Assembly (NCBI GenBank): GCA_008632985.1
Contig: QPGO01000090.1
Coordinates: forward strand, 248,001 to 312,000
Source: Psammoneis japonica
Lineage: Eukaryota
Reading direction: 5' to 3'
Length of the DNA stretch: 64,000 bases
In this document: positions 33,331-55,845 of the stretch, one piece after another
How the letters are laid out: each line of letters begins with the position of its first letter
Numbering within the stretch: position 1 is the stretch's first letter
Made by a program: the position numbers and the translations under genes
The notes under the pieces: generated by a model
What the model was told of the DNA's origin: nothing
The model's database searches: none
The model's input: the letters and a program-made list of their open reading frames with translations, nothing else

Positions 33331-33720
33331 CGACGACTACGCGTCCGCTGTGGGTGCCACTAGAACAACGTCGAATGATGAGATGGAGTTTCCTCGAAAC
33401 TATTGCTTGATGCATGCGGCCGCATACGGATTGACTTTCGAGATGAAGAGCAGCTGGTTAGGGAATCATTAAGATCATTTCAGCAAGGCTTTTCTGGAAA
33501 GCAGGTTATACACCCAGCGCAGATTGCGCCGGTGCAAGAATCGTACTCACCAACAGAAGAATCAATCAAACATGCATCGGAAGTCGTCCGTGCCTTTGAA
33601 GAGCACCAAGAGGAAGGGAAGGGTGCGTTTAGCTTCAAAGGCCTGATGATTGACTTGCCAACGGTACTACAATACAAGCTGCTTCTAGAAAAAGCCCGTC
33701 TGATGGGACTTCACGAATAG
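32762..33720 (+). pseudogene. CitE/HpcH-HpaI (citrate lyase beta-like) gene with a degraded 5' half
   Basis: CLDMEDG, ERLVRING, DGIVTPK, MIESPQA, AVIFGGDDY, QGFSGKQVIHPAQI, GLMIDLP; frameshifts near 33.03-33.08 kb and ~33.43 kb. Confidence 0.8.
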
Positions 33721-33979
33721 CTCTCTCTAAAAGGTAGCCTTTACGGCACGAAGATACAGAATCTACTTATTCACTTTTCCAGTCTACCCTATGGAATTTT
33801 GAACCAGACGTTGCTCAACTTTGAAATGCGCAACATTTTGTTTCGACCATGCCTCCTCCTTCGCCGACCAGGATAAGATGGTCGGAAAGTGATCTCAGCC
33901 GCAAGACGATGATACTCCATGTTGCATGCCTGGAATGCCCCACCAAGCAACAGAAGCATAACGACCCATTCCAGACGCT

Positions 33980-35014: not shown

Positions 35015-35259
35015 GCTTTGTTTCCGTTATGATAGATGGAATTTAAGTGCCGAAAATCATATATGTGTTTTGCACCATCGGTTCGGGGGGGGGGTTAAAA
35101 ACTCTTTGCTGACTCACCGCCCGACACACCATCGGGTTTTGGAGTTTTTGATTCAGTACAGCAAGAGTTGCAGCGCCTTCCTTCCAAGAAGTAGGAGATA
35201 TAGGGCCCTACCTTGTAAAGATGGGGAACGGCCCGAGTTCCGAGTTTACACCCAAAGAC

Positions 35260-36585
35260 TCAAACATGCATCGGAAGTTGTTGATGCCTTTCAAGAGCAC
35301 CAAAAGGAAGGGAAGGGTGTGTTTGGCTTCAAAGGCCTGATGATTGACATGCCAACAGCACTGCAGTGCAAGCTGCTTCTAGAAAAAGCCCATCTGATGG
35401 GACTTTGCAAGAGCAGCTCTCTCCAAAAGGCAGCCTTTGTGGCACGAAGACACAGAATCCACTTGCTCACTTTTCCAGGCTGCCCTGTGAAATTTTGAAC
35501 CAAATGTTGCTCAACTTTGAAGAGTGCAACATTTTGTTTTGACCATGCCTCCTCCTTCGCTGACCAGGACAAGATGGTCGGAAAGTGATCCAAGCAGAAA
35601 GACAACAACATGAGGCTGGAATGCAAACACCAAGCAACAGAATCAGAATGACCCACGCTGAATGCTTCACACACCTGATTGGGTTGCTTCCTTTTCTGAC
35701 CAGTCGGCCTGAAATCAAGTGGACATGGCAAATCTTGAAGCAACAAGCAAAACAACGAGCTCGCAGTCAAGTCATCTGTGCTGCTGCTTGTCCCCACCCT
35801 GGCCAACACGTGCACCTGCAGACAAGGGTGCACGTTGTCTCGTGCCAACAGTTGTTTGCTCAGAAATTCTAAGACAATTGATGTCTTGTGGCACCTTCCT
35901 GATGAGATTGCAAGATCCAATGGCGTGCGCCCATCATTGCTGTCGAGAGCATTTGTGTTGGCTCTGTGTTCAAGGATCAACTTCACTGTGCTTCCCCGGG
36001 CACAGTCCATGCAACGGCATCAACCCAGTGTCATTGGTTTTATTCACACTCACTTCATTCTGCAAAAGCATGAGAGCCGTCTCAACTCTCCCACTTCTTG
36101 TGGCAAAGTGAGTCGGTGTGCAACCCCCATCCGTTGTCTTTGCATTTGTGCCTGCTCCATTCCTCACAAGAAACAAAATCATTGCCACTCTTTCCTCATC
36201 CAAAGATGTGACATCATGCAAAATAGTGTTGCCATTGCTGTTTCTTTTGTCAACTTGGGCACCACCTGAGAGTGGAATTTGTGCAATTGACACCTTGCCA
36301 AACCTGCGCGCAAAGCCAAAGGGTGTGCAGCCAAAACATTCTGTTGTCAAACTTGCTCCGGCATCCAGCAACACCTGAATCTTTTCCTGTGGTCGTTCAC
36401 ATGTGGATTGCATGTGACAAGAAAAATTGGAGTGGAGCAACCAGCAAGACATGGCGAATTTGGATCAGCACCTGGTTGCAGGACATGTTGCACATCTCCC
36501 ACAGTTCCATCCATGACAGCCCTCATTGGGCAACAAAAAAGAGTTGGACATGTGAAAGATCCTCCATGTTTTGCTTGAGGGGTGT
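35260..36585. pseudogene. Tandem duplicate of the CitE 3' end plus ankyrin gene (copy of ~33566-34905), hypermutated
   Basis: Colinear alignment starting TCAAACATGCATCGGAAG; differences dominated by TA->TG/CA and CG->TG/CA; frameshifted ankyrin ORFs. Confidence 0.9.
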
Positions 36586-36639
36586 GTGGAGCGCCAATGG
36601 ATGGTCATTGACCACTCAGTGGTCAGTGATTGCATGAAT

Positions 36640-37590
36640 TCCACATGAAACAGTCATGTTGGAAAAAACGCGTTGAACAACAAGTGCATTTGTGCGATGT
36701 GCTGTTTTGGTGGCAAATTGGAAAAAAAGAGTGTCTGTGCACCTCACTGCAGCCCCAAAAATGGCATGAGCCATCAAACACAATGGTCATCCGTGTCACT
36801 GGTGCAGTGGCCACGCCACATTGCCGCTGCAACCCCGGTGGTGTGGTGGTGCAGCAGGGCCCTGCGCACTGTGCACACCGCACAGGCAATGCAGCATGCA
36901 ACAGCACACACCCACACCCACAAAGAAAGACAAGTGGTCAATGCTCCTCATAGGCCTGGTTCATTGACCACTCAGTGGTTGGTGATTGCAGACTTTTTCA
37001 TGTTGGTTGGGCAGTCGGGGGGTTGGGCAGTTGGTTCGTCTGGATTTGAGAGTGTGTCCCTTGGATTTTGGAACAGCATGGGTTGTTCAGTGCAAATGAG
37101 TTGTTGCTTGGATTTGTGGAATGAACATTGAGGACATTGGAGGTTGTGGTGACATCCTAAAAAATTGACAAATTTCCTGTGACGGGTGCATGGAACGGTT
37201 TTTCAGGAGAGCTTGAAAGTGCTGCAAAATTGGGATTGCCGGCGTGGCATGTTGAAAAATGCACTGAGCTTTGAACAAATGGAGTTTGTCATGAATTGTG
37301 CGTGAAACAGTCACATTGAAAAACAATGTTGAACAACAAGTGCATTTGTGTGATGCGCTGTTTTGGCAACAAATTGGGAAAAAAAGAGTGTGTCCGTGCA
37401 CCTCACCACAGCCCCAAAAATGGCATGAGCCATCACATGTGACAGTCATCCACGTCACCAGTGTGGTCCCCCCGGCAGTGCAGCAGGGCTCTGTGCACTG
37501 TGCGCACCATGCAGGCAATGCAGCGCGCAATGGCACACACCCACACCCACAAAGAAAGACTGGTGGTCAATGCTCCCTGCAGGCCTGGTT
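36640..37590 (+). repeat. Two ~300-bp direct repeats (~36640-36960 and ~37300-37590)
   Basis: Shared GAAACAGTCA...GTTGAACAACAAGTGCATTTGTG...CAGCCCCAAAAATGGCATGAGCCATCA...CACCCACAAAGAAAGAC. Confidence 0.85.
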
Positions 37591-40500
37591 TTGTTTTGAG
37601 GTCAAGAGAGGCAAGGTGCTTGGCTTTTTGCTTTTGAACCATGAGCCGAGCCACAAACCGCAAGTTGCACTCTCTGTTGCCCTCTCTGCTGCTAGAGTCT
37701 CTCTGCTGCCAGAGCTCTGGCATGCAGTGGCTGCTCTCTCTGACTCCAGCAGATGCTGCACAGTGGACAGAGTGGTGCCAGCACAGAGAGGCCTCCAGCA
37801 GCTGGGGCCCTGCTCTGGTCAGTGGCTCCACCAGCAGAGCACCACACCACAGTGCTGGCCACAGCAGAGCATGAGTCATCAGTCGTCAGCACCATTCGCA
37901 ATCCACAAAAAATCACCAAAACTCCCCCCACTGTTGTGCCACAGCAATCTCTGGAATTGTGCATTGCAGGAAAGGTTGAGGGGGGGGGGGGGGGGGGGGG
38001 CATTTTTAACATGCTTTGCATGAGGCAACACACCACCACATTTTGAGTCTTCTTGCTCTCTCAACACAGCACACTGCACTCTGCTGCCACTGCACAAGGT
38101 GAGCACATGTGCTTGGAAATGTTGTGAGTGCCTGGCTCTCTCTGACCAACATCCCTTCTGATGCTGGTGCCTCATGCAACATTCTTCAAACCCTTTCTTT
38201 TGGGAAAAAGAAGCAGTGCATTGGCAGGCTGAAGACAGCAGGCACCAAGCTCAAAGAAAGACTTGCCCAAGCCACAAGGGGAAGCAGCTGGGAGGCCCCA
38301 AATGGTGGCAAGAAGAAAGCCAGCAACAACATTGCAGCTGAGGATGTTTTTTTATGATGACCCAATGCTGTCATCAAGGACAGCAATTGCAGCTGGAAAT
38401 GCGGGAAAAATGCAGAACTCTCCATCAGTCCAAGTTTGGCTTTGCCAAGGGATTCCCCAAAATTTTTGGGAGTTGCCACCTTTTGCCATGCTCTTTTGCA
38501 GGGAGCATGAGTTCCTGGAGAATCACCACAAATGCTGCTTTGTCATGTGTGTGCTGTGGAAATGAACTCAAATTCAGGCAGTGGGAATTCCCTGCATTTC
38601 TCCTGCATCTTAACCATGAGCCTGGGTCATGTGAAAGTCACACGCAGGTTGTCACACTGTGGTGAACTGCATTGTCCCCCGTCAGTGCCACAGCCTCACA
38701 CCATCCAACAACTGTTGTGTTGAGCTTGTTCCAAAAACATGTCACAGCAACAGGAGGGAAAAGGTTGGTGGTCAATTTTGAAATTTTATTGTGAGCATTG
38801 AGAAATCTAATGCTGAACATGCCATGCTGCAAGTTCAGAAACAATTGCACAATTTCTTGCCCAAAGCAGGGCTGCTGATTTTGGCACTTTGAGCAGATGC
38901 CCATTCCACATAGAATGTGGCATTCAAAATCTCATGTCAGTTGTCCCAGTCATTTCATCAACTCACCCTTGTGTGGCAGTGGGCCATGTGATCTGTGCAA
39001 GTTGAACATTTTTGACTTCTGGCACATTTTCTGCAGGCGCTGCATGCGCGAAGCTCAAATTGTGTGCCCAAAGCAACAGCTGCACCTTTGTGCTGGAAAT
39101 CATGCAATTGTTCCCAAATTTGCAGCACCGTCATCTGTTGCAATGATGCCAATGGAAAAGAGCAACAGCATTGGATGCAGCAAAGGCAGTGCCAGGTGAC
39201 ACAGACCTGAAAACACAAATGTTCCATTTTCCCTCCCTTTTCACCTGTGCGCAAATGAAAGATCTCATCATGCTGGCCAGGAAACAGCTTGCACAACTTC
39301 AAATTTCCATGTTGTCATTTCTTCCCCTCAAAAATTTCCTCACTGATGACATGATGCTCAGGACACCAACAGGGAGATTGGCACATCACTCACTCTTTCA
39401 AATTGACCACATGGCACCACCTTGCAAGCTCTCCTTAAAACACAGGAAAGTGCAAAAAGTCGCTCAAAGAAGAGGAAAGCAATGTTTGCAGTGTGTGTGC
39501 AAAGTTGACAAAGCTTTCAACAGCAGGAAAGACCTCATTGTGGCATTTGGTGCCAAGCAACTCTTTCAACAGATTTTTGTTTTGAAAGACAAGAGCCAAA
39601 AAAAATTGTCAAAAAACATGAGCACAGCTTTCAGTGCACCAGGCCAACACTCACAACGGCAATTTTTTTCTTCTCAGTTGTTTTTTTTTCTGCCAAACGT
39701 CCATTTTTTCTGCCAGCCCTGCCACTGAGATGGTGGGCACATGACATGCGCAAAGTGGCAGAGCCATGCAAACTTGACAAGCATGACTCAGATTCAGTGC
39801 CAACTTGCTGTTGGTGCGCTGCAGCTGGAAACCATGGAAACCACCTCACCATGGCAACTCTGTGGTCCCTGTTTTCTCAACGGCATCACCTTCAAGAGCC
39901 GCAACAATTGATGATGTGTTGCTTGCATCTTGTGAACTTGTGTGTGGCAGAGTTGACATGTGGGAGTGCAACAGGCTCATTGTCAACTTTTGTTGTCAAA
40001 AAGTTTCACTGCAACCAATCAGCTTCAAAGCATGACAAGGTGTGCACATGTGAAATCAACTGTGAGCTGTCAAGACATGTCAGCGTTATGGTGAGTTGTG
40101 AGTTTGTGGCTCTGTTGGTGGAGCACATTGCATTCGCGGTCACCATTGTCATTGCATTTTGACAAGTCATGGAAAATTTGAAATGTCCAACACTTGTGTT
40201 GGCAGGCATGTGATTGAACACAGGTTCTTCACATGGTGCAGTGCTTGACACACAGAGCACATCCAATTTTCACAAGCAATCATGGGCTCATTTCATCAAC
40301 ATGTGGTGCATCAGCACAGATTGTCAAATGCAAAATGTGCTGACATCAACATGCAAACATTGAGCTTGCCACCAACAAACAAAACAGTGGACACTTGGCA
40401 AAAAAATGGGTGTTTTTTGTCTGTCAATGGAAGGCATCATTGCCGAACAAGCTGAGCATGGCATTGAAGCCAACGACAACACAGAAGCAAGAGAGATTTT

Positions 40501-42247
40501 CTGCACTGTGCTACGAGAGCTGCTTCTCCAAGCAACATGTGTGCCCTGCAGCTCATGGGGGCACCGCTGCTCCTTCTCTTCTTTGTGCAAGAAAGCCATG
40601 AGGACCTCATCTGGATCATGTGCCAAGATGCTGCCAGTCTGGAGAGTTCTTGGCCTGGGAGCACCATGTGGCAATGCCCTCCTCTCAACATGCCCACCAA
40701 AAAGCACAAATCCAGGGGGGTCCAGTGCTGTGCTGTTGTCATGTTGCCCCCCCCTTCCTTGCTCTTGTGCAGCCAGTGCTTGTGGCTCACATGCCTGGGG
40801 GGAACAAAAAATCTGAGCTCTGCAACTGAGATGTCACACACATGGAAATCACAGCTGAGTGCTTTTTTCTTTTTTCTCAGCATCCTATGAATGACTTGAG
40901 CCAAGGCACTGGCTCTGACCACCAAAGTACATCCCACACGTGTGCACAAGTCAACCAACAAGTGTGGGTCGACCGCCTGGTGCGCGACATTCGGGAGTGA
41001 TTGATCACACTGAGGGTGATGTGCTCTTAAATTTGATACGTCTGTACGTCGTCTCACGGATCGTGGGGTCTTCGATGCGCGCACCCAGCACTTAGACTGC
41101 TTACTCACTGGCTATTGGCGATGGCAAATCCAAAATCCAAGTTCACGATGATGACAAAGAGTTGGAGAGGTCGTCATCAGCGATGAAATTGGCACTGAGC
41201 ATGGGGTAGATATTGTGAGTGACTCTTCTCTAGCACCTGCCATGTGATCGATTAATTTCTGCAAGTGATGTTGAAACAAAATACGCCGTTTACCTGTCGG
41301 ACTTGCGATGAGGCTGACATACCTCAATCGATGTCGAGAAGATTTTGAATTCAATGACTGATGCTGTTGTTTCATTTGATCGAGCTTTGTATCCATATAC
41401 TCGAATCAATTGTTTGCTCACGCTATGTGCTCTTTTATCGATAATGTTCTTTTTGATGCTGTTCGACCAAAGGTATAAGGTATGTTACTTGCATCCCACA
41501 TCCTTGGGTTACGAGCACGAGTTCATTTGTTTTGACTGTGAAGATCCAATTCGATCGTGACGTTACCCATTGTGTGGCAGTGGTCGATAATCAATATCAG
41601 TCTTTAAAGTTCTCTGAGTCTACAAAATGAGCATGCAATCGCAGGATGAAAATGCAATGTGCTTAAGCATTTCTCTCTAGCTAGAGACTTACGCGTTTGT
41701 TCCTCCTTTTTGTACCGATTCTTCTTCTCTCACTGTAGAGACATAATCCTGGCGTCGCCGTTGAGGGCAAACCTGGTAAGACTCGTTTTAGTTTGCTCTA
41801 GTAGATTGTTTCAGAACCCTACAAACTTGGCTATCGCATAGACTTTTTGGTCCATAATGTGACGGTTTGATCATGTCGGGAAGAGTAGTTCCTTGCCATT
41901 CTCTCCGAGTGCGGAGTCAGATACACTGTTGACGCATTAGCACTATCATAGAAAGGCAAACACCCAAACTTCTGAATGAAGCAATGATGGTTTCACATCT
42001 TTGACCGACTCACACTCTTTTCATTTCGTTTGACGGATAAAGTTGAAAACATGGAATGATGGACGTTTGACCGTGCAACTTTGACGTGAGAAAGGATGTG
42101 TTGAAAGATTGCTTTCTCACATTATTCGTACGTGGAACCAGTGCGGTTTTTGGTGCAGCCTTTTCCACTGTGCGATTGCAAGCGAGCGGCGCAATTTTCG
42201 GCGACGATACAAGTATGAACACCGAGCAACACTGCCTCACTGCAAAC

Positions 42248-42600
42248 ATGACCAAAAACCACGACCATATTCTCGAGATTAACGTGGGTGGCAGGATGTT
42301 TAGTTGCCGTTTTCGACGCTCTGTGGCAATCCCAAGTAGGCCCTTGCCATGATGATTGAAGCGGATTCAACAATTGGTGTTGTTGCCATGGATGCGTGTG
42401 GCCTTTCTTTTATTTTTCATACCGCGATTCCGACAGTTTTGCAGGGATTCCTTCCTTTTCACGTCGCGGTGGACGACTTGTTGGCGCTACAAGCATAACC
42501 TGTTGATGAGCATTGAAAGCTTCTTGATGAAGCAGAGTAGCTTGGGTTGCAACGTCTAAGTCGGCGAGCGTATCGAGCAGAAGCAAAAAAAGCGAAGCAA
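42248..42600 (+). pseudogene. BTB/POZ (KCTD/T1-type) domain pseudogene
   Basis: ILEINVGGRMF, RDSDSF, LLDEAE*LGLQ in shifting frames, with stops. Confidence 0.6.
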
Positions 42601-43053
42601 GAGGAAGAGGGGGCGCAATCTCATAATTGCAGCACTGCGTTGTGTGGCGTTACGAGTGCGCCGAACTCTGCTCGCCGCTGAATTCGTCAGGAACTAGGAA
42701 ATTTGATAAGTTTTTGAAAGGAAACCTGAGGAGGGTTCTGTCTCTAGAGTAGAGGGTTACGTATACCGGAGCCTGGTGACGCGCTGAAATCCAATCGCTT
42801 CAACAATAACGATGAAGTATTAAAGGTACCATCCGACATTTGTGCTACAGACACATGATATCTCGCATACGCCGTAGTAATAATTCGAGCAACCTCACAA
42901 TCATGTGGGCTGTACTCGTACGGTATGCGATGCGGAACTAGGCAAGAGTCCTTGCAACATCTTGTCGCGAATAAGAAAAGTGAGCCCTACCGTACAACCT
43001 GTTTCTCAAGCCACTGGAGCGCGGTTCCTGTTCAATACCTATGACGTCGGAAA

Positions 43054-43773
43054 TCACCGCAAAGGAGTTTCACATAAGAAGGCTTTTCGAGGACTTCTGC
43101 CACTACTTTCGTTGATTTCACTCAGCAACCGCTCGCTTTCATGTTCTGCACGATTGGCTGCTGCCAGGTCAGGCCACTGAGACTCACAAAAGTCTCTCCA
43201 AATCTCCACGGCCACATCTGGCGAAGCCGTATGGTGTTCATACTGCTCCTTGGAACACACGTGCTCGTCTTTCTCTAGACACTCCTTTGCCCATAGAGGA
43301 GACCGTCCCCACTCATCTTCAGCACAAACATGAGCGGGCGATGGTTCAAGAATGATGTCCTCTGTCCATAAACAAAGAGGTCTCTTTTCTAGAAGCTCAG
43401 GTTTCTCGGCGAGACAGTCTAACGTATGCAAGACTCGACCGCACGGAGCTCCGGCTCGTCTCTCCTTTTGAAGAGGCCACCCAACGACCAAACACGCCAC
43501 GTTATTCTCCTTTACTACCGTATGAATCTCATCTACGATAGCCTTATCGAGCTTTCGCCGGTTGTTGCGAGTCTCGTACTTCATTTGAATCGCTTCCAGC
43601 TTGATGGGTGGAGACACTTCTCTTCGAGACGGATGAGGTGCCAGAGCCATGCCAATACGGTCGCTGCCAATGTCGAGCGATAGCGCGTATCCCCCAAGAT
43701 GTTTCCAGTCTAGAGCATTGGCAACTCTGGATGGTGTCGTTATGAACGTTGTCAATTTGCTTACCGTTCTCAT
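43054..43773 (-). CDS. YqgF/RuvX-like RNase H-fold protein
   Basis: LSLDIGSDRIGMALA and LVVGWPL...GAPCGRVL motifs. Confidence 0.75.
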   Translation of the reverse strand: MRTVSKLTTFITTPSRVANALDWKHLGGYALSLDIGSDRIGMALAPHPSRREVSPPIKLEAIQMKYETRNNRRKLDKAIVDEIHTVVKENNVACLVVGWPLQKERRAGAPCGRVLHTLDCLAEKPELLEKRPLCLWTEDIILEPSPAHVCAEDEWGRSPLWAKECLEKDEHVCSKEQYEHHTASPDVAVEIWRDFCESQWPDLAAANRAEHESERLLSEINESSGRSPRKAFLCETPLR

Positions 43774-44240
43774 GGTGTCTTTTTCTTCTGCGTTGCATGT
43801 GGGAACAAGAAGAGACGAAACAAACAGAAGGCCCGAACGAGAATTTTGTGACCGAATTTTTTGAATTCGCGCGGTGTTCGGTTTCTGGCCACACGTCTGA
43901 TGTCACGAATGTCACAGAACGTGCGACAGCTTGTCAGTCTGATGTGGTGTGTGGTGCATGACTGACTAAAAATGACGTGTCAACCACGTTTGTCTGTGCA
44001 CTGTGCACCCATGCCGACAAACAAATGAAAATGGGTTATCAGCCATTGAATTGGGAAGCACCGTTTTGTTTCCAAAATCGATGCTTCTTTCATCTTCTGC
44101 ATTGTCAATTGACATGCTTTGTGCCTCTGGGGGTGTCAGATTCATGGTTCTGAAGAATGCCATCACTTTGTCACAAGAAGGGCGGCCTTTTTTCTCTCCA
44201 AGAGGAGGACAGACTGGCTGTCAGCAGAGCTGGGGGCTGT

Positions 44241-44516
44241 TGACAGAAATTGAAGGCAAATGGCAAGAATTCAAACAATGACTCCTTACTGCTGTCTAAA
44301 TGGCAGATGAGTCTCCGCTCAGAGACCGTTGCAGGAGCCGAAAGACGTGTGAGTCGGTGCAATCGGGCTACTGTCATTGTTCTTGTGAGCCTTGTGGCTC
44401 GAAAGCAAACTGCATCGCGCGTGAACGCGCGGAGCTAAAGCACACAAAACTGTGCGCGGTAAACTAAACAGCGCGCGACACTTCGCGCGCATCCAAATCC
44501 TGTTCAAATCCTGTCA
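44241..44516 (-). repeat. 3' LTR (TpA-converted copy)
   Basis: TGACAG...CTGTCA; 11 transition differences from the 5' LTR. Confidence 0.95.
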
Positions 44517-47500
44517 CTCCCCAGTTTGCTTGAGGAGCCACAGAAACAGATTCGACTTCGGATGGAATGAAGTTCCAGAACATGAGGGGGCGGAGAAGGT
44601 CCCAGATTTGGGAGTGACCCCAATGCTTGCTGAGAATGTCAGCAGGGTTGCGGGAGCCTTCGATGAAGTGGAACTCAAGGTAACCAGAGGCAATTGCCTC
44701 ACGCACACGGTGGAACGACAGTGCGGTGTGTCGCTTGTGTAACTTGGAGTGCGGGATGGTGGCACTGTCTACAACCGACTTGTTGTCACCGAACATGCAA
44801 CTGACATTGCGGATCGGGACGCCAAGGCAGCGCAGGGTGATGCGCAGGTCAACAATCTGCTCAACACAATTCCTTGCGGCAACAAATTCAGATCCGCAGG
44901 TTGCAGTTTCCACGGTGGCTTGTTTCTTGGAGAACCAATCAGCCGGGAATTTGTTGAGGAAGTGGAGCATTCCCATGACAGAGCGTCCGGTGAGCATGCA
45001 ATGGTGCAAGTTTGCGTCGACGCAGTGGGTGGCAGTGACGAACTTGCCAAGGGGCAGTGGAGCGTCCTTCGGGATCATCTCTTCTGCTTCACCATGCATG
45101 GAATGCATCCATTCATGGGCCGGAGCAGGGAGATCCGAACAGTCAGGCTCTTCCGTGCGAACGCGGAGAGCACCGTGTCGCATCTTGGAGAGGCACCCAC
45201 ACACGCGTTTGGCACGATCCAAGTGGCCTTGACGGGGTGCAGCTCGGAAGCTAGAGAGTGACATGACAGCCGTGGCAATGTCAATTCGACCAAGGGACAC
45301 TGCCCATTGGAGTGAACCAACAAGAGACTGGAACTTGTGAATGCCATCGGGTCCCAGCAGTTCGGAAGTGTCCAGTTCGGGGTGGTCACCCTTCTCTAGA
45401 GGTGACAGGGCGTTGGTGGCAGGTTTCTCCCCAAACAGTCGGGCGCAGCTGTCGACCATGCGCTCGATGTACTTGCGCGGAGACAGGCACAAGGTTCCGT
45501 CGGGGTCCCGGGAAAAGTCGCAACCCAGATGGAACTCAATGGGTCCCACACCCTTGAGCTTGAACTTGCACTTTTCCGTGAGAGCATCGACGAAAGATTG
45601 GGGGTCCTTCATGGCAATGGCGAGGTCATCCACATAAACGGCAATGCATTCACAGTGGTCGCCGTTCCTGCGCATCCAAATGTCGGGTTCGGCGCGGCAG
45701 GGGAAGAAGCCTTCAGCTCGCAGGCAGTCGGCGAAGCGCTCGTGCCAGCGGAGACCGGAGCTGCGCAGTCCACACAGTGCCTTGTGGATGACAAGGATGT
45801 GTCCTTCGAGTTTGCCAAATTCGGGTCCAGCTGCAATGTAAAGCTTCTCCTTGGTGGTGGCTTCAAGGCAGGCATTGCCAATGTCGGTGGCCCATGTCTC
45901 CAGCTCGTTGAGTTCGGCCAGGAAAATCATCAGCCGAAGGCCACGGAGGGAGACTGCTCCGGAGTAGACACTGTCGACAGGTACGTCCGTGAGGTGCCCG
46001 TCGGCTACGAGTCGTGCCTTGTGGCGACCGTCGTGTTTCACGTCGTACACCAGGTGCACTCGGATCTTCTTGTGTCCCGCAGGAGGAGTGGAAGACTTGA
46101 AGGGCCCGCAGTCATGGAAGACTTCGTATTCGTCGAGTTGGTCCATCTCGAGATTAGTTGCGTCTCCCCACTTGCGGTTGCCGTTGCGTTTGTCTAGTGA
46201 CATGGCGTGTTTGTAGTTCCGGGGAACTTCGCATCCGTACTTGCAGCGAGGTGCAGTGCGGAAGGAGCGAAGCTTGGCTTGGTTGGCCATGCGAAATAGC
46301 TTCTTTTGGCGCCTTGCGATAGTGCGGAACCGCTTCCAGCCATCCGTGTCGAGGAGTCCGTTCTCTCGTGCATAGATGGCACAGGTGACGGGGTCGTCCT
46401 TGGCGATGATGGCAAGAGGCTCGGACGTGATCTCCCCACTTTCCCATTCAAGCATGATGTTGTAGCTTGAGCCTTTCCAGGTTGGGTCGTGAGGCTTCAG
46501 AGGTCCTTCGTGTGATGCGATGCGTCGAAATTTCCAAATGGTGGTGTCTTCGTCTTCTTGCTCAATGTGATTCATGATGTCATTGTAGGCAAGGACTTCC
46601 TCGTGTTCATCATTGTTGACAGAGCAGACGAACTCAGTGAGCTCGGGATTGCCGTTCACTTTCCATTCGTGGTCTTCGACGGCCTTGACGATGCGAGCTC
46701 TGTGGCGTTGTCCGTCCTCTTGTGGCTGCATGAGGAAGGTACGTCCAATGATGTCTTGCGGATCGAAAACTGGCATCTTGGGTGTCCTGATCTCCCCATC
46801 AGGAGAATCGACGGGGTTGTCGTCATGGCGAGATTTGATGATGGGTTCAGGTGGCTCCCCATCAGGAGGATCAAGACGCAGGTTTCGAACGGCAGGATCG
46901 GGGGTGGCGGAGTGAACGTTGGACCGGTGGAGGATGTTCTGAGTCTCGTCAGATAGGATCTTGAAGGTCATCTGGTGGCCGACGTGCTCAGCAATGCCAA
47001 CAAAGCGTCCACGCAACTCACGGGATTCGGGCGGCCAATCGGAGTCATCGAGGTGGAAGCACACTGGTTCCCACCAGTGAAAGCGAAGCAATGGGCTGAT
47101 GTCCGGGGTGGATCCAGTGAGAGTCTCGAGGGGCGTGCGCCAGTGGAGACGTGGGGACGCTGTGTGGTTGAGCATGAAGCACACGCACATGAGCGCCAGC
47201 AGTGCCGCAGACGTCGGTGACGGTAGACTCGGTGCCAACAAACAGTTGGGCGCTGGTGCAACCAGAGTCGACGGCCGGGGTGTCGGCGCAAACGGTGTCA
47301 GTGGCGACAGGCTCGTTGCGGCGGTGCACATTAAGGGCGGGGTTGGGTGATTTGCAGGCCTTGCGAAGGTGTGCACCGGCGGGCATGCGGGCGCACTGCG
47401 TGGTGCAGTCAAAAGTGCGACGGACCGCATCGACAGGCAGGAAGCCAAAGCAAGGCCGAAGAGACTCGAAGGGGGGGTCCTTGGGCTGCACAGTGCGCTC

Positions 47501-49906
47501 CGGAGGTGGAACGTCATCGCCATTGGGGTCAATCGCATGCAGATGACACTCGCAGAACACGTCGTCGTTCGGAATGAGGTGATCATCGAGGGCGGATGCG
47601 TGATCGGCAGACAAGGAAGCGGACAAGATGGTCTCGTTGACAACGACACGGTGACGGCAGTTGCCGCATTCGTCAAACAGGTTGGCAGTGGGATCGTCCT
47701 GCAGGTCAGAGATCGCGTCGCACCACTGGTCGTCGTCAGTGACAGAGTGATCGAGGACGGAAGGGTCCCATGTGTCATCACCGGTGAGGATGACATGGGG
47801 CAGGGTGTCCCATTCGGCGTCAGTGTAAGGTCGCATGGCAACACAAGGCAGGCCAGCCTTGATGTCAATGGGGATGACACAGCCATCAGGAGTGGCAATG
47901 CGTTGCAAGCCGTTGGGCACCTTGACAGAGCGATCGTTGACATCCTGTTTGTGCCATTCGAGCTGGCCGCAGGAATGGATGGTCTTGCCCTTTCCCGTGC
48001 ATGCGCACTGATGGAGGATGGCGATGACGGGACCACGCTGGGTCTCAATGACGGCACCAGCGGTGACAATGGGGATGTCCACCAATTGATGATCGTCAAT
48101 GCCCTGAACGTCGACTTGGCGAGAGGTGCGTGCAATGACGTGAACGTCGTCGCCAGCAATGCCGCCGTTGGCCCCACGATCGACTGGAGCGCCAGTGCGT
48201 GTGGAGCGATGAGCAGAGGCAGAGCAAATGACATTGTGGTTGTTGACGCGGCGGCAAGTGCGGCCGTTGAGTTCTGTGTCATCTGCAGGAGCTGGTGGGG
48301 CAGAGGAAGTGGCGGATGGCCCCGGTCGACTGGCATTGGGGGCTTGGTTAGGTGACAACAGACGTTGCAGATCACCGGGTGGCAGTGGCTTGCGCTTGGT
48401 GAGGTGCGCCAGGATGGGATTATCCGAAGTGGCGTCCACATGTGTGGCGGAGTCACCACAGTCAGCAGGAGTCGTGTTGGACAAGTTGACATCACCGTCA
48501 CTCCCAGGGTGTTGGTCGTGAAGGTTGGCCGTAACAGACTCATGGCAGTTGCTGGCTCGCGGGTTGCGGGGAGGCGGACGAGAGTGCTCAAGGATGATCG
48601 CCTTGGAGGAATCGGGCAACGAATCCCAGAGCCGTTGGTGGTCGGGAGGGAGACGTCTCCATTGGACACCGGTGAGGCTGGGACCGCGGGTGCAGGCAGC
48701 ATTGGCTTGAAGGACGTCAACGTCGCTGTCAATGTCGTAGAACACATCGTCGGACGGTTCCTCGGAGCAAACGTCGTGTGCGCATGTGGCGCGTCGGGGA
48801 GCTCAAGGTGTCGTCTTGGGTTGAAACGTGCTGTCGTGCTGAGCTGCCGCAGAGAGGAGCAAGCCACAGCATTGATCGCATGTGAGGCTCTTGCCACTCT
48901 GCGCACGATGCTGATCAGCTTGGTTCTTGACAGCACGGAGTTCCTCGACAGGGTGCATGGCATTCTCGAGCATGACGCGCTTCTGTCCTTCAGAGAAGTG
49001 GTCGCTGGCGGGGATGAGTGCCTCGCACTTGCGCAACTGATCTTGCCAATGAAGGATGAACCCGTGGGTCGGACCTTTCCAAGTGCCATCACCAAGACGT
49101 GCGGTGGTGAGGTGCGTGAGCAGGGTGGAGGACTCGATGGATGCACGGGTGGAGGCAAGCGCGCACTCAGACAAGGAGCGGCAGACGGTCTGTGCGTCAG
49201 AAGACCCCACATTTTCGCGAATGAGAGCCTTGCCCTTGTCGGTGAGAAGGATGCGTTCGAAGACGGCGAACATGTGCTTTTGCTGTTCAGCAAAGAGCAG
49301 TTTGTCTTCAGGGCTGGTCGGTTTGTACGACGAGTCTAGAACGCACTCGACGTCTTGGGCACGGGCTTGTGCCACAAGTGAGGTGTGCCAAGTGTGCCAC
49401 TGCTTGTCGGATTTGAGAGCCGTGAAAGCGGTGGGATCACGCTTGATGCCTCGCTTGAAGTCTCGCACCGGGTCGCGTGCCTTGGTCAGGTTGGTGACAT
49501 GTGGAGGTGCAAGGGGTGAGCTGCCGATGGACACAGAGGACATGCAGTCCGGGCTGAGGCGGCAGGCAAGGAACTCGTCATGCGTGAACAAAGAGGAGTC
49601 GTTGGCAACGTCAAGGCCTTTGTGTGCTTTGACAATGCACAGGCTAACTGGCGCTGCTAACATGTTCTCATAACCACGGGGCAAAGGGATTGCATTGGTG
49701 CCGTTGTCGCACTCAAGCGAGTCGATTTGGGACGGCATGAACGTGAACAGTTCCTGATGCGAGTCCGTGCCGTCTTGGGCCAAAGCCAAACGAAGAGGAC
49801 TCCCAGCACCTTGGGCAAGCACGGTTCCAACAACGTGCTCGAAACCATCGGTTTGTTGCTGACGAGTGAGAACCATGGCAGACAAAAGTGGTGTCAGCAC
49901 AATCAA
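44464..49906 (-). pseudogene. gag-pol polyprotein remnant (gag 48803-49906; PR/IN N-part 47045-48745; IN C-part, RT and RNase H 44464-~47200)
   Basis: FKRGIKRDP (gag), VDRGANGGIAG (protease), RHKARLVADGH, AVYVDDL, WFSKKQATVE, NPADILSKHWG; frameshifts and an integrase-core deletion. Confidence 0.93.
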
Positions 49907-50815
49907 TTCTGGTTGGGAAGCGAAGGCAGACTCAAAACTTGGGTGAGAATGGACTTGACTTGAAACAGACTTGACTTGAAATCTTGAACTATCTTAAAAT
50001 CAGAAGTCGCCGGGCTTTGTTGTCCCGTTCGTTGTCAAGTGCTAAACTTCCCATCCGGTCCGTAGAGTTGTGCCGGCACGTCCGAACCCGCAGCCAGCGG
50101 CGCTTTGGGTTGCTTGCGAGCGGAGCAGCGGGTTGTAAACCCCTGCAGGCAAGCTGACTAGAGGTGGACAAGACCCCCGAACTGTTCTTGTTTTATGTCG
50201 GTTGGATTTCCCGATCAGGCTGGCCAGTTGACGCAGGCGTTGGGCGCTGTGGACGAACGAACAAACGCGGGAAAGCACCCTCGCCCCAACGCAGGCTGTG
50301 ATCACGGCTGCTTGCTCTCACAGTCGTCCTCGTGGACCTAGTAGAACTGTAGAGCACCAGTAGTCCGGGGTAGATCAGGTACAATGGACTCGGTGTGCTT
50401 GTAGAGTGGTGGCAAAACCGCAGTCCGAAGGGTGGGTACAGGTTCTTGGCCGTGAAGATATGTATATATATATATGTCTTCAGCGACGAAGATCCTTGAA
50501 TATGTAGGGTTCTTGACCGTTAACCGATGAATAGGTATATCAAGGGATGAGGATCAAGGATAGACTTGGATATGACCGTTGAATGTATGTCTTCAGCGAT
50601 CAAAGGCAGTATAATGAATCCAGACATCCAGCGGCAAGGAGACTTGACGGTGACGTTAACTTCCTGCCGATGCCCTGGTATTGGATGCGCGTAGACTTGC
50701 CGATGTATGTAGAATATATACGGAGGTCCACGTAGAATTGAAATAGCGTCGTTGGTAAATCAACGACGACGATGGCGGTTGCTCAATGGGTTGACAATGA
50801 GCAAGACTGTTAATC

Positions 50816-51091
50816 TGATAGAAATTGAAGGCAAATGGCAAGAATTCAAACAATAACTCCTTACTGCTGTCTAAATAGCAGATGAGTCTCCGCTCAGAGA
50901 CCGTTACAGGAGCCGAAAGACGTGTGAGTCGGTATAATCGGGCTACTGTTATTATTCTTGTGAGCCTTGTGGCTCGAAAGCAAACTACATCGCGCGTGAA
51001 CGCGCGGAACTAAAGCACACAAAACTGTGCGCGGTAAACTAAACAGCGCGCGATACTTCGCGCGCATCCAAATCCTGTTCAAATCCTGTCA
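50816..51091 (-). repeat. 5' LTR (TpA-retaining copy)
   Basis: TGATAG...CTGTCA, followed by TSD GCTGT. Confidence 0.95.
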
Positions 51092-52949
51092 GCTGTGCAC
51101 AGCCATGTGCTGAGAAAATTTGCACAGTTTTTTGGGCACCCAAGTTGTGCAGCAAGTCAACTGCTCAGCCATTGTCTCTTGCAATGGCAGCATGATGAGA
51201 GTCCACAGTGCACCACACTCCTTGTGTCAAACAATGTGGGCCCCCATGAGCTCTCTCATTTGCCGTTGTCAACTCCACATGCCTTGTTGCTCACATTTTG
51301 CACACAGGTGTCATGAATTTGAAATGGACAACATAAAAAACATTCATCAATGAGGACATTCAACAACAAAAATTCAAACAGTGGATTTTTTTAGAAAGCG
51401 GCAATGTGCTGCTTTTGCCCCCCGCCGTGCTGTGACATGCAGCACTCATTTGCCCTGCCGTTTTCACCAAGATCTCCATTGACCTGCTTGCTGATGCTTG
51501 CAAATTGGGTTTGTGTGTCAAACAATGGAAAGCCACTGTCTCTTGGAGTCACTTTGCAAAGTTTGCCCCTGCAACAAGAGGACAGACTGGCTGGAAGAAG
51601 AGACATGGACCGATTTTCACTTGCAAATTGAAAGTGTTGTCACCACACCAGCACAATGTGCAAAACAGAACGTTGGGAATGGCACATGTCATGTGCAAAC
51701 ATGCAGTCAATGTCCACATGACAGGCATGTAAAATGACTGCACATGACTCTTTGTGCAGAATTTGTGCCAGCTGCTGGTGCATGCTTGGGGCTGGATGAA
51801 ATGAGATCCAACAACGGCACTCCATGTCAAGTGAGTTTGAATGTCAGAGCTGCCAAAATTGACCAAAACACCAGCCACGTCTTTTGACAAAACATGCAAA
51901 CATGGATGTGGTTCATGAAGCAGTCAGAGTTGAAAAGCAACACCAAATTTAAAATGTTGACTTGGCCAGGAAAATTTTTCAAATCTTTTGACATTGTGCT
52001 TGCAAGTGGCAAGCATCGACTTTTGACTTGGAGCTGTGCAGGTCATCAGTGAAGCAGGGCCTGCATCTGAAAGATGGCCCAGTCATTTGCCAAAAACCAC
52101 TGTCATCAGGTGCCATTGTGTGAAAATTGCAAAACTGGTGTTTGGGATGTTTTTGGCAGCTCACACTGTGCCAGCCGCACAGCTCCACAATTGTTTGACT
52201 TTTCTGCGCCCACGAAGAGCAAAATGCTCAACTGTGAAAAGTGCCAAAATGAACAATGAAGCTCTCTGTTAAAACAAAGTTGGGCTTTTTCAACCCCTGC
52301 AATTTTGACCAATTGCGCTGCTTTCTCTTGGACAAATTTTGCACTTGTGGCTCAGGCAGCTGCGAAGAGATCCATGCTGCGCAGAAATTTGCACAGCACA
52401 TCTGAAAGGGCAAGGGCAGTGGCATGCAAGAAAGTTGTGGACAGATGACAGCTTGCTGGGGGCACATGCAGAAACCATGCAAAAGTGACTTTTGGCAACA
52501 ATTTTGGGCATCTTGTTGGCCCTGGTGTTGTTCAAACTTGTTGGTTGCACACCAGTGTGTTGTCATTCTGCTGCATGCATCGCTTCAAGAGTGTTTGAGC
52601 TGAACATCTCCTGTGGGCCAAAATGAGGTGTGAGCTGAGTCATTTTTCTGAAGTTGGTGACAAAGAGGAACATTGACATTTTGCCACTCAACTGGAACAA
52701 CAGGTTTGCATCAAGAAGAAAAGTGGCGCCAAATGCAAAAATGGTTGCGGAACTTGCAATTGTGGTGCATGAGTTAAAAAGAGAAAATGCCAGAACAAGA
52801 CATTTTGTCTGGCATTGGTGTGGAAAAAATCAAAGAGCACATCCTTGGCATCTTCCTTTCACACAAGTCTTTGCCCTGCTTCATCTCAACAGAGGCTCCA
52901 GCCAGCAGAGCAAGATTTTTGACAATGTGGGCAAGAAATGTTGTTTGCC

Positions 52950-53790
52950 GGCCCCTGGCCAGAAATGTTTCTCACCACTCACCGGAGGTGTCCTTTGCCG
53001 CTGCTGGCCAGAAACATTTCTTGCTGCCAGCAGCCAAAAAGGTTTCCCACCACTCCCAAGACATGTTTTTAACCACTGGCTGGAAACTTTTTTGCGGCTG
53101 GCCAGCAGCATTTCTCACCACTTGCCAGAAATTTTTTCACTGCCAGCCAGGAAAGTTTCTTGCCGCTTGCTGGTGGACATTTCTTTGCCACTCTGAAAAT
53201 GTTGCCAAACTTGCCAAAAGTTGCCAAAGCCACCAAAGCTGATGACTGATGAAGTCACCAAAGTTGACACAGGTGACAAAGTTGACACAGGTGAGAAAGT
53301 TGGCAAAGCTGACAAACACTCCAAGCTTGCCAAAGCTGAAAAAGTTGCCAATTTTGCCAAAGTTGACAAAGTTGCCACAAATCTGACAAAGTCGCCAAAA
53401 TTTCCAAACTTGACAAAGTCAACAAACTTGCCAAAGTTGACAAGGATGACAAGAAAGCTGACAAACTTGCTGAAAGTTGCCAAAGCTGCCAAAGTTGACA
53501 AAATCACTGAAGCTGACAAACTCACCACTCTCGCCAAAGCTGACAAGCCAAAAGTGTTGTTTGCCATTGCCTGAAACATTTCTTGCCACCCACCAGAAAT
53601 GTTTTTTGCCACTGACCAGAAGCAAGCATTTGATGCCATTTCTTGCTAGAAACATTTCTCGATGCTTGCCAGAAATGCTTTTTGCATCACCGGCCAGAAA
53701 TGTTTCTTGCCGCCACTCGCCAGAAATGTTTTTCAATGTTTCTTGCCACTGGCCAGAAATGCTTTTTGCCAGTGGCCAGAAATCCTTGTT
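52950..53790 (+). repeat. Composite minisatellite: ~23-bp units flanking a ~9-bp unit array
   Basis: CCAGAAATGTTTCTTGCC-like units at ~52960-53190 and ~53570-53790; GCCAAAGTT/GACAAAGTT units at ~53200-53550. Confidence 0.8.
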
Positions 53791-55169
53791 GCCACCTCGT
53801 GCTTCAAAGTTTGCACCCAGCGCTGACATCACACGGGCAAAATTGCACCATCTGCTGCAGCGCAGTGCAACAAGAAGCTTGAGTGGCAGAGAGCTCACTT
53901 TGTGCCAGCCGCTGGACAAATGTTTGCAGCATTGGGCCAACAACTCTTGCCAAAGCCACTGCAGAAAAACCAGTTTTTGCCTCCTGCACCAAGCAGCAAG
54001 CTGATGGGTTCCAGTCCTGGGTGGGACTCCGTGTGACATTGGGCCCGCAGAATTCTGCGTGCGAGCTCCGCAGTGCAAGAGCTCAATTGATGGATGTGTT
54101 TGTCTTCAACATCAAATGAACGGCCAAGTTTGTGGTGCAATCGTGCCTGTTGCCACTCAACGTTTTTGCAAATGCGCGTGCCCTGCGCAATTCTTGAGGC
54201 ATTGTAGAATTGCGCTGCAACAAAAAATGTCAAAAGTTGTTGGACGGATCGCTCAACAAGTGCACCGTAAAATGACACAAAATGTCAAAAAAATCATGTG
54301 GAAATCTGCGTGCGTGACATGCGACATGATTGAAAAAACTGTCGATGTCACAGCTCAGTGGTGCAAGGTCCCACCCAGACCTGACTGGAACGCATCAGCT
54401 GCAAGCATGACAACCCACTGCCTGACCAAGTCAAGCCCACCCTGGTGCAGATCATGTGTCAAGCCATGGCTGCAGCCTTTTGCAATGATGACAGCAGCCA
54501 AACTGTTGCCAGCATGGTTGCCCTCACGCTCTTCTGTCTGCTTCTCCATCTTTTTGAAAACATGTTGGGGTGCTCCTTCAAACATGTGCCCAGCCTGCCT
54601 TGATGACGTCGAACTCTGGGTTTAGCCAACATTGTTGCAATGCATTTGCCACCTCATCTGGTGACTTGGCTCATGTCTTGTTTGCTGCTCTGGCCTTCAG
54701 CACCCAAAAAAGGGGCACAAGGGGGTCAATTTTGTCAGGTTGGCATGCAGCAGTGACCCAACAACACCATGCCCGCCCCCCCTGGCAATGGCCTGCTGTG
54801 CACACCACCTCCAAGCACATGGCACAACTTGCGCCACACATCCAGGGCCATCTTCTGCAAATGTGGTTGCTGCCATTTGGTCAAGCCACCTGATGTTGCC
54901 TGATGTTGCAGCTGCCTTGTTGGCCTCCACAGCCATGGCCAACCCACCAGCTGGCTTTTCACCTTGTGGTGATGTTGGCGCTCAACACTTGTGAGCTTCA
55001 GGAATGATGGCCCTCCTGTGTGCACAAGTGGGCAGTGTAACATCATCCACCCATCTGCACAACTTCTCATGCCACATGGTGAGTGGAGGGGCCTTCACCC
55101 TGCTCCCCACCAGCCAGAATCTCCCTCCCAACAATGCTGGCGACACACTTCCAGCCACCTCCAGTCAGT

Positions 55170-55650
55170 GGCATGCCTGCCTGTCCTGCACACACAGGCA
55201 AAACAGGTGGGTGGCACGCGCCACTGTGAATCTTTGATTGCCACCAATGCTGCCCCCTGGTGTGATGATGCAATCTGGTTGAAGCAGTGTGAGCAGCTGT
55301 GAGCTGGGCAGCAGAATTGGGAGAGAAACCAGATCTTGCAGACTGAAGAGACCTGGAGCCAAGTCAGGATCACCTTCAGTGTAACCAGCAAAGATTGCAC
55401 TGCCATCATTGGCAAACACATGCACCATGAAATTGCTGATTGCTTGATTGACAATGCATCACTTTGTTGCAATGAGACTAAGATGACTTGACTGTGAGGA
55501 CCAGGCAAGCCAGTGCAGTTTGTAAGTGCCCACCCACAGCCGCCTGGTGTGCCTGCCTGTCCTGCGCACAAAGGCAGCACAGGTGGCTGGGTGGTGCATG
55601 CCACTGTAAATCTTCAATTGCCACCAATGCCAGCTGGTGCAATGATGCCC
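55170..55650 (+). repeat. Two ~100-bp direct repeats (~55170-55270 and ~55550-55650)
   Basis: GCCTGCCTGTCCTGC...GCCACTGT...TTGCCACCAATGC in both. Confidence 0.75.
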
Positions 55651-55845
55651 TCTTCTTCCATCTGTGCCCCCCCTGTTTTCCTTCTTACTTCCACTGGTGG
55701 CTTGGATTCTTGTCCCAAAGGACAGGTGGAGCAAGACTTGATGACGAGTTTTGAGATCTGAGAGCTGGAAGCAGCTTCTAGCTAGCACCTGCATGGTGTT
55801 CAAGGAAAATCAGGAGAACTTTGAAATTTAGACAACATGTTCAAC

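Follow-up and report, generated by a model that had tools for sequence, protein, structure and literature searches.

Probable regional TpA to TpG/CpA hypermutation of a copia retrotransposon and other, presumably silent DNA in the diatom Psammoneis japonica

How can the reverse transcriptase of a retrotransposon come to carry cysteine or histidine at positions where its relatives carry tyrosine? This question is raised by a Ty1/copia-type element in the genome of the diatom Psammoneis japonica, found in a single 64-kb stretch of DNA (64,000 bp; contig QPGO01000090.1, positions 248,001 to 312,000), hereafter called the window, to which all coordinates refer and which is the scope of our analysis. 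A first-pass annotation of this DNA had described, in the reverse transcriptase (RT)/RNase H region, a systematic recoding of Tyr to Cys or His and of Val to Ala, and had taken TA as the ancestral dinucleotide. That observation covered only a part of the phenomenon, which spans about 22 kb of the window and includes DNA other than transposons. Our results make it likely that a regionally targeted process, acting at the DNA level, has converted TpA into TpG or CpA in the copia element and in other, presumably silent DNA of this diatom.

All twelve peptides quoted by the annotation (DIGNACLEA, KALCGLRSSG, DHCECIAVYVDD, RVCGCL, EPDCSDL, THCVDANLHH, ETATCGSEF, TLRCLGVP, SCMFGDN, HWGHSQ, GHKKIRVH and YSGAVSLR) are present in the minus-strand translation of positions 44467-46500. 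The element was aligned with 59 relatives (the chimeric P0001 was excluded) and columns conserved at 80% or more were considered, 384 in total. The element deviates at 33 of these columns, and the deviations are concentrated on tyrosine: of the 21 conserved Tyr columns, 13 hold another residue in the element (Cys in 9, His in 2, Trp in 1 and Phe in 1), against 20 of the 363 other conserved columns (Fisher p = 1.5e-10). At the changed tyrosines, Cys is always encoded by TGY (nine codons) and His by CAY (two codons); the conserved columns also contain one Val to Ala change, with GCA, and one Ile to Met change, with ATG. The recoding is therefore systematic for tyrosine, as had been proposed, while for valine the claim concerns one conserved column only. 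The codons TGY, CAY and GCA agree with the DNA changes that had been suggested as the cause, TAY to TGY or CAY and GTA to GCA, and TpA itself is nearly absent from the region. In a second, wider alignment, 132 relatives were scored at 19 Tyr columns and 130 of them retain at least 79% of these columns. The two exceptions are P0065 (6 Cys, 2 His), which from its sequence is evidently another mutated copia copy, and P0132, a misaligned fragment. Relatives keep tyrosine at the sites in question, so that the refuting condition set by the annotation, Cys or His at these sites in active relatives too, does not hold.

The element is a Ty1/copia LTR retrotransposon on the evidence of its reverse transcriptase domain, its long terminal repeats (LTRs) beginning and ending with TG...CA, and its 5-bp target duplication. 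A Pfam search of the minus-strand translation identified RVT_2 (PF07727, Ty1/copia reverse transcriptase) at E 4.2e-26, and self-BLAST revealed two 276-bp direct repeats with 96% identity, namely the 5' LTR (50816-51091) and the 3' LTR (44241-44516). The target duplication, GCTGT, is intact on both sides (44236-44240 and 51092-51096). Since the flanks are identical and the LTRs are paired, we conclude that this is one complete insertion of 6851 bp (44241-51091, minus strand), which is now non-coding. Its protein relatives are 55-70% identical to it, and one of them, P0126 (2070 amino acids), is collinear with the element over residues 10-1948, in two frames (tblastn). The gag-protease-integrase part (47204-49912) matches residues 10-969 with 31% identity and the RT/RNase H part of pol (44578-47217) matches residues 1051-1948 with 60% identity. 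The frame shifts near 47204-47217, and the upstream part is interrupted by an in-frame TGA at 48803-48805. The collinearity with P0126 would suit an order gag, protease, integrase, RT, RNase H, yet in the mutated upstream part Pfam matched no family, integrase and protease included. Inactivation by missense load, as previously proposed, is borne out by the tyrosine recoding, but this copy was also damaged by the in-frame TGA and the frameshift. A search of the window by tblastn with two full-length copia relatives found no second copia remnant, and no RNA data set containing the element was listed in the run look-up.

The loss of TpA was then evident from dinucleotide counts. The tract 44246-49990, which comprises gag, protease/integrase, RT/RNase H and the 3' LTR, has 42 TA in 5745 bp, an observed/expected ratio (o/e) of 0.16, with CG o/e 0.91, TG o/e 1.31, CA o/e 1.53 and a GC content of 57.2%. 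The rest of the same element (49991-51091), that is the 5' LTR and the leader between this LTR and gag (49991-50815), has 60 TA in 1101 bp (TA o/e 0.88, GC 50%), and TA o/e is 0.59-0.62 in the four parts of the window with normal composition. The leader, whose TA content is normal, also contains a (TA)n microsatellite (50459-50474), beside a tract nearly purged of TA. It could be asked if the element is simply TA-poor by nature, because of codon usage, of selection against TpA or of a TA-poor donor, given that TpA is under-represented genome-wide (o/e about 0.6). To this explanation we assign practically no probability: the 5' LTR and leader of the same element reach 0.88, the element has lost conserved tyrosines of a catalytic domain as well as its continuous frame, TA o/e is 0.52-1.02 in 47 of 50 related loci fetched from metagenomes, and the comparison of the two LTRs already refutes it.

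The two LTRs differ at 11 positions, and at 10 of these the 5' LTR has TA while the 3' LTR has TG (6 sites) or CA (4 sites); the reverse pattern, TA in the 3' LTR only, was found at zero sites. The 3' LTR, partly mutated, has thus changed at 10 of its 16 TA sites, keeping six, with one change elsewhere, whereas the 5' LTR, which keeps TA at all the 10 sites, shows no detectable mutation (0/16; Fisher p = 2.5e-4). LTRs are identical at integration and these differences run from TA to TG or CA, therefore the change most simply occurred in DNA after insertion, and since both TG and CA outcomes are found in one copy, both strands were affected. The direction of change is confirmed by the relatives at the nucleotide level. 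We considered 29 positions having TA in at least 60% of 30 unmutated relatives: the element has TA at 9 of them, TG at 13, CA at 5 and TT at 2, while each of the 30 relatives retains TA at 14-27 of its 18-29 covered positions. The tyrosines of the relatives, these 29 positions, the LTR pair and a pair of ankyrin genes described below agree in making TA the ancestral state and TG/CA the derived one, as the annotation had supposed. The changes are specific for the dinucleotide: 10 of the 11 LTR differences and 11 of the 13 changed conserved tyrosines (those with TGY or CAY) are A>G or T>C on TpA, and the rate at TpA in the tract is far above background, by about two orders of magnitude.

A change of A to G or of T to C at TpA removes TAA and TAG and creates no stop codon, with long spurious frames as a consequence. 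In a wrong frame of the minus strand, 44464-49335 is open for 1623 codons, and open reading frames (ORFs) of 170-585 amino acids abound in the six frames of 44246-49990. In all three sense frames the stops left in the tract are almost all TGA. The idea that the process, unlike repeat-induced point mutation (RIP), makes no stops is consequently supported. RIP resembles what we describe in being transition-only and dinucleotide-specific, in affecting repeats and silent DNA, in its sharp borders and in killing transposons and duplicated genes. However RIP consists of C:G>T:A changes, mainly at CpA, which make TpA and stops and lower the GC content (RIPCAL), while here TpA is destroyed, stops are erased and the GC content goes up.

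The copia element is only one of the TA-poor regions of the window. Five tracts, including the copia one, cover 22,047 of the 64,000 bases, with TA o/e 0.04-0.16 and TG/CA o/e 1.3-2.0. The four tracts other than copia appear older (TA o/e 0.04-0.07, CG o/e 0.16-0.73, TG/CA 1.6-2.0). Tract T1 (27800-33350; TA o/e 0.05) is practically TA-free, and CG is strongly depleted up to 30800 (o/e 0.16 in 27800-30800) and by half beyond (0.52 in 30801-33350), with TG/CA o/e about 1.7. Tract T2 (35300-41000) is almost without TA and CG (TA o/e 0.05, CG 0.23, TG 1.88, CA 1.84). Tract T3 is split by the copia insertion, which, with its target duplication, sits inside it: the left part (43800-44240) has TA o/e 0.07 and the right part (51092-55700) has TA o/e 0.06, CG 0.24, TG 2.03 and CA 1.69. 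The borders of the tracts are sharp, within about 50-200 bp, and the old tracts contain TG and CA in balanced numbers, so that a large-scale strand asymmetry is absent. Concerning their content, the targets are one retrotransposon, host-type pseudogenes and unrecognisable DNA. Among 78 ORFs of at least 90 amino acids in T1-T3, Pfam matches at or above the curated cut-off were solely ankyrin (2 ORFs) and HpcH_HpaI (2 ORFs), and two tract ORFs had sub-threshold matches to domains of unknown function (DUF); the larger share of these tracts is thus without a Pfam match.

One of these targets belongs to a tandem pair of ankyrin-repeat genes. Copy A (33566-34904, minus strand; ORF 33983-35026) is intact, with an Ank_2 match at E 1.4e-36, and sits in a 1.9-kb island of normal composition (33400-35260; TA o/e 0.62, CG o/e 0.97). 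Copy B (35260-36583, minus strand) is a decayed, hypermutated paralogue with 77% identity to copy A and weak ankyrin matches. Of the TA dinucleotides of copy A, 48 out of 49 are changed in copy B (22 to CA, 17 to TG), and of its CG dinucleotides 63 out of 79 are changed (30 to TG, 23 to CA), while the other 14 dinucleotides are kept at 57-79%, CA itself at 75%. In this respect too there is a difference from RIP, which mutates both duplicates, since here copy A is intact. The two ankyrin units join at the left border of T2; this limit may be imposed by an active promoter, or the duplicated unit itself may be what is recognised.

At the edge of T1 there is a remnant of an HpcH/HpaI aldolase gene, citrate-lyase-beta-like (32666-33400, plus strand), recognised by PF03328 on two adjoining ORF pieces (E 1.1e-08 and 2.9e-10) with an in-frame stop between them. 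This remnant straddles the composition border, which lies near 33350-33400; TA is found 0-2 times per 200 bp up to about 33400. A repeat is present twice in T2 (36633-36961 and 37290-37590) and is mutated in both places; its word depth in the sequencing run X1, considered in detail below, is 3900-6000 against about 60 for unique DNA. Transitions account for 48 of the 55 mismatches between these copies, including 13 adjacent CA/TG double mismatches, from which we deduce that the same ancestral TA or CG was resolved independently in each copy. The process acts, then, also on DNA that is not a retroelement.

These data bear directly on the possibility that the RNA of the element was hyperedited from A to I by an ADAR-like enzyme and then reverse transcribed and integrated. 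Such an origin would match the observation that A>G takes place after a 5' T, as ADAR has an upstream-U preference (bioRxiv 10.64898/2026.01.13.699255, Discussion), and that the element belongs to a highly repeated retrotransposon family. We consider it very improbable, and it is already largely refuted by several results: a single copy shows both strands affected (9 Tyr>Cys together with 2 Tyr>His, 6 TG together with 4 CA in the LTR); an LTR pair with an intact target duplication is unequal at 10 TA sites; the ankyrin paralogue (22 CA, 17 TG) and the HpcH-like remnant, which are not retroelements, carry the same two-strand changes; and the tracts cross different kinds of sequence. More generally, going by the accessible text of the sources, APOBEC and ADAR enzymes provide a likeness in producing clustered transitions that inactivate retroelements, ADAR sharing also the 5' U/T preference, but they act before integration and on one strand, APOBEC by G>A/C>T changes at TC or CC, while here we found both strands, an unequal LTR pair and non-retroelement DNA.

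The ankyrin pair also allowed us to estimate the context of the changes, with rates from copy A versus copy B folded on one strand. A>G was found at T[A]C in 16/25 cases, at T[A]T in 13/27, at T[A]G in 8/24 and at T[A]A in 4/20, compared with 2-20% in the 12 non-TA contexts. A pyrimidine at the +1 position is therefore preferred (T[A]Y 29/52 vs T[A]R 12/44, p = 0.007), and because of this preference Tyr codons, being TAY, go mostly to Cys. The 83 TA that remain in the tracts show which contexts were consumed: ATAT has disappeared (113 occurrences in normal DNA), a single ATAC is left (229 in normal DNA), and TTAA has survived best (14 vs 60). For C>T, the rates are 22/44 at TCG, 11/36 at GCG, 14/49 at ACG and 7/27 at CCG, and 4-14% outside CpG. 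Polymerase eta is characterised by a WA mutation motif, but a signature of this type does not fit, as A[A]N changes in 2-4% of cases, except AAT (9/46). A UV-type signature is found at PyCG, and it does not fit either, since ACG (14/49) and GCG (11/36) change about as often as CCG (7/27).

Along copy B, adjacent events lie on one strand in 30 of 39 cases (p = 0.001) if they are of the same type and in 26 of 53 if their types differ. A single agent for both TA and CG was rejected on the basis of this second count. With caution, we read these data as two separate processes, each acting in short runs on the same strand. RIP, too, acts in strand-coordinated runs. The two processes differ also in speed: the young copia element has TA o/e 0.16 with CG o/e 0.91, therefore the TpA process is faster than the loss of CpG.

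Could the tracts have arisen with no dedicated mechanism, silent methylated heterochromatin decaying by spontaneous damage and poor repair, with TpA and CpG as the most labile sites? The older tracts are indeed old enough to be unrecognisable, their CpG loss fits the ordinary decay of 5-methylcytosine, and the preference of both processes for sites flanked by A or T could reflect DNA breathing. The copia element is difficult to reconcile with this view, because in a young insertion with CG o/e 0.91 the 3' LTR changed at 10 of 16 TA sites and at one other position, and sharp borders of about 50-200 bp also argue against it. Moreover, the accessible text of a study of Phaeodactylum gives a spontaneous spectrum biased towards GC>AT (PMC6604790), and in Bigelowiella natans, according to the available part of a preprint, the same signature arises in bursts, in 11 of 15 lines (bioRxiv 10.64898/2026.01.13.699255). 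Spontaneous decay is thus an improbable explanation of the TpA loss, and a process targeted to TpA remains the one that we prefer.

A further question is whether the sequence is real. The stretch of the window is present in the DNA run X1 and in three small runs of the same sample. X1 contigs with a word depth of about 50-100 match T2 with 2-4 other letters per piece of 0.9-2.2 kb; as they differ from the window elsewhere too, they are not a copy of the assembly. Over 33400-51200, X1 contigs with another letter give 383 transitions against 77 transversions. Among the 40 of 462 variants given in detail, the window and X1 differ within T2 by transitions at 35956, 36224, 36359 and 36401, and at all four the alternatives are CG/TA versus TG/CA. 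This points to a recent process, whose outcomes may still vary within the population or between haplotypes.

The copia family is highly repeated, its summed word depth in X1 (which is not a copy number) being 65,000-155,000 over 44100-51200 against about 50-100 on the unique flanks, and its copies in X1 differ almost solely by transitions. The word depth of the leader equals that of the rest of the element; since it is as high, the leader belongs to the repeat family. Within RT/RNase H there is a less mutated patch (45840-46460) with 13 residual TA, including 8 of the 11 retained Tyr codons, and four TA sites of this patch are mutated in most other copies in X1. At the residual TA 45965/45966, for example, other copies in X1 account for 32940 of 53186 depth units with C at the first base (45965) and for 11028 of 53186 with G at the second (45966). 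A loose end in X1 at 44270 represents another copy, whose outcome differs at a site mutated in the 3' LTR.

Independent data sets contain the same signature. The three of the 50 metagenome loci that fall outside the range given above are TA-poor (L035 0.13, L030 0.27, L014 0.31; CG o/e 0.74-0.80) and represent other copia lineages, with 63-67% nucleotide identity to our element. Conserved TA positions are still TA at 2/21, 1/23 and 13/26 sites in these three loci, respectively, and the rest are mostly TG or CA. L014 and P0065 are about half mutated, so that, together with the 3' LTR, partly mutated states exist. These states and the four transitions in T2 hint at changes that arise de novo, within generations.

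With these observations an artefact of sequencing or assembly, in which modified bases at TpA and CpG would be miscalled, can be evaluated. The platform of the assembly and of X1 is not on record, and the tracts lie where modified bases are expected. Nevertheless, we regard miscalling as extremely improbable: X1 contigs of word depth about 60 reproduce the tracts with 2-4 differences per piece, the signature recurs in three metagenome contigs and in P0065, which come from other data sets, the reading frames of the ankyrin and copia genes have decayed to match, and each palindromic site is cleanly TG or CA, CG/TA never being created, unlike what mixed-strand miscalls would give.

Several points weigh against our interpretation. 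The generality of the process in the genome rests on a single 64-kb window, and X1 may be the source sample of this window. The 5' LTR and the 0.8-kb leader are spared though they are equally repeated and abut an old tract, a pattern that our interpretation does not account for. One possibility is that the 5' end was restored by ectopic gene conversion from a copy without the mutations, and in that case the LTR argument on timing would be weakened, while the pseudogenes and the two-strand pattern would stand. Concerning the ankyrin genes, 183 of the 279 mismatches are other differences, which indicates an old pair, and the polarity therefore depends on taking copy A as the functional member. 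Strand coordination was counted post hoc, and runs tests give no more than a modest effect for all events (37 runs vs 47.5 expected, P = 0.018), with 19 vs 20.8 expected for TA alone (P = 0.34) and 22 vs 27.0 for CG alone (P = 0.098). Finally, the precedent discussed below, that of B. natans, is a preprint (bioRxiv 10.64898/2026.01.13.699255).

The mechanism that we propose is the following. After integration, A:T>G:C transitions would take place at TpA on either strand, with TAY>TGY (Tyr>Cys), TAY>CAY (Tyr>His), GTA>GCA (Val>Ala) and ATA>ATG (Ile>Met) as their coding effects, and with the rise in GC, the loss of TAA and TAG and the long spurious open frames as by-products. Other, presumably silent DNA in the window, the two host-type pseudogenes included, would have been driven near saturation, the island of an expressed-looking gene being spared. 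The agent would be an enzyme, either brought to silenced chromatin or directed by RNA, with a DNA adenine deaminase of the TadA/ADAT2 type as the likeliest candidate; acting in short runs on one strand and preferring T[A]Y, it would convert A to inosine, which is read as G. We hold adenine deamination as the chemical step with a confidence near to, and not above, an even one. A role in genome defence is conceivable, as has been proposed for B. natans. In the older tracts a second and slower process would remove CpG (CG>TG/CA), most likely deamination of 5-methylcytosine, because diatom repeats are CpG-methylated, and in the end state the self-complementary pyrimidine-purine dinucleotides would be collapsed into TG and CA.

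An alternative chemistry starts from the other base of the pair. In the signature, A>G on a strand and T>C on its complement look alike, and a TET/JBP-type enzyme could oxidise thymine at TpA to 5-hydroxymethyluracil (5hmU) or 5-formyluracil, pairing with G and leading to T>C; read as N[T]A, the context preference becomes R before T. 5-formyluracil mispairs with G, and dinoflagellates have 5hmU at TpA and TpC. For diatoms a literature search on 5hmU, N6-methyladenine (6mA) and base J found nothing, and the sole paper on the same signature, in its accessible text, favours adenosine deamination, without a test. Thymine oxidation is thus unlikely in our opinion, and adenine deamination is retained as the working proposal.

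The closest system described so far is the chlorarachniophyte B. natans. In its mutation-accumulation lines two silent viral insertions mutate about 1000x faster than background; of 231 mutations in the insertions, 230 consist of A>G or T>C, without exception on TpA. The same genome has 124 clusters poor in TpA and rich in CpA+TpG, and coding sequences with low TpA are enriched for RT and DDE domains. As the agent, its authors suggest a DNA deaminase similar to ADAT2, and they liken the process to RIP as a defence (all in the accessible part of bioRxiv 10.64898/2026.01.13.699255). Comparing what that part reports with our data, the likeness includes exclusive A>G/T>C on TpA at the DNA level, a regional action with rates orders of magnitude above the flanks, a rise in GC, and a footprint of clusters poor in TpA and rich in CpA+TpG, reverse-transcriptase genes included. 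As far as sequence can tell, the signature is the same as in B. natans. There are also differences. The host is a diatom, thus a stramenopile, and the text available to us makes no mention of diatoms. The targets in B. natans are giant-virus and virophage insertions, while here they are a high-copy LTR retrotransposon and host-type pseudogenes. Rho is 0.45 in its nucleocytoplasmic large DNA virus (NCLDV) region, while the TA o/e of 0.04-0.16 found here is near saturation. The older tracts of P. japonica lost CpG, which that text does not discuss. The preference for a +1 pyrimidine, the local strand coordination and the spared 5' LTR and leader are further differences, and our evidence is a footprint only. 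What is new here is the diatom host, the targets, the saturation, the CpG loss, the +1 preference, the strand runs and the spared promoter end. A literature search for TpA>TpG/CpA hypermutation, which left most subscription journals uncovered, found only the Bigelowiella preprint and none in diatoms, and the accessible text of a 2025 preprint on diatom transposons has no mention of hypermutation, dinucleotides or deamination.

Other known systems share single traits with what we found. Diatom repeats are CpG-methylated in large blocks (PMC5124317, PMC9998398, accessible text), and the decay of methylated CpG resembles the CG>TG/CA changes of T1-T3 and of copy B (63/79), but it cannot explain the loss of TpA, which is stronger and earlier (CG 0.91 and TA 0.16 in copia). 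Diatoms also carry DNMT4 enzymes related to RID, whose function, according to the available text, is unknown (PMC9998398). In amphioxus, BjADAT2, a tRNA-editing enzyme, was reported to deaminate DNA both from A to I and from C to U (PMC10354150, accessible text). The comparison with the ADAT2/TadA family has a second aspect, that of sequence context. The native tRNA site of TadA/ADAT is U-A-C, and it resembles the T[A]Y preference seen here. To our knowledge a role of ADAT2/TadA in genome defence has been demonstrated nowhere.

Other features of the window complete the description of the locus. The ORF of an ABC1 kinase flanking the tracts has only diatoms as its best named matches, with 64-80% identity (Nitzschia, Cylindrotheca, Seminavis, Cyclotella, Thalassiosira and others). 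By this homology the host is a diatom, which the mention of CoDi elements in the annotation had already implied. At 9780-11198 (minus strand) an ORF contains a full-length DUF2254 (E 6e-108), and its nearest clusters in the protein atlas are all bacterial; from this similarity it may be of bacterial origin in a diatom genome. At 17677-20727 (minus strand) there is an ORF of 1017 amino acids with an N-terminal AAA_16/STAND-type NTPase domain. In DNA of normal composition we also found a pair of 92-bp inverted repeats (3395-3486 and 7743-7832), 95.7% identical and 4.3 kb apart.

Regarding the biological meaning of these results, a saturated footprint in a diatom, together with environmental copia contigs, would show that the process is not peculiar to one alga. 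Our broadest proposal, to which we give slightly less credit than to the chemistry, is that diatoms have a defence based on enzymatic editing of DNA, guided by chromatin or RNA and deaminating adenine at T[A]Y in short runs on one strand, which would be the same as in Bigelowiella, ancient, and widespread in the stramenopiles, alveolates and Rhizaria or beyond. Diatoms are a major phytoplankton group with genetic tools (CRISPR, methylomes), in which the enzyme can be sought and knocked out, and context, strand behaviour and borders can be read in the window from its LTR pair, its duplicated gene and a family of high copy number. A natural editor of adenine in DNA would be of interest also to base-editing research. 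For genome annotation, TA-free DNA is a trap for gene prediction, as it produces long false ORFs and gene models poor in Tyr and rich in Cys and His; TA changes also inflate the divergence of LTRs, so that insertion dates based on LTRs would be wrong. If our interpretation is true, the erasure of TAA and TAG would fill genomes with long open frames, a possible raw material for new genes, and, together with CpG methylation, the process would drive silenced DNA to a state free of both TA and CG.

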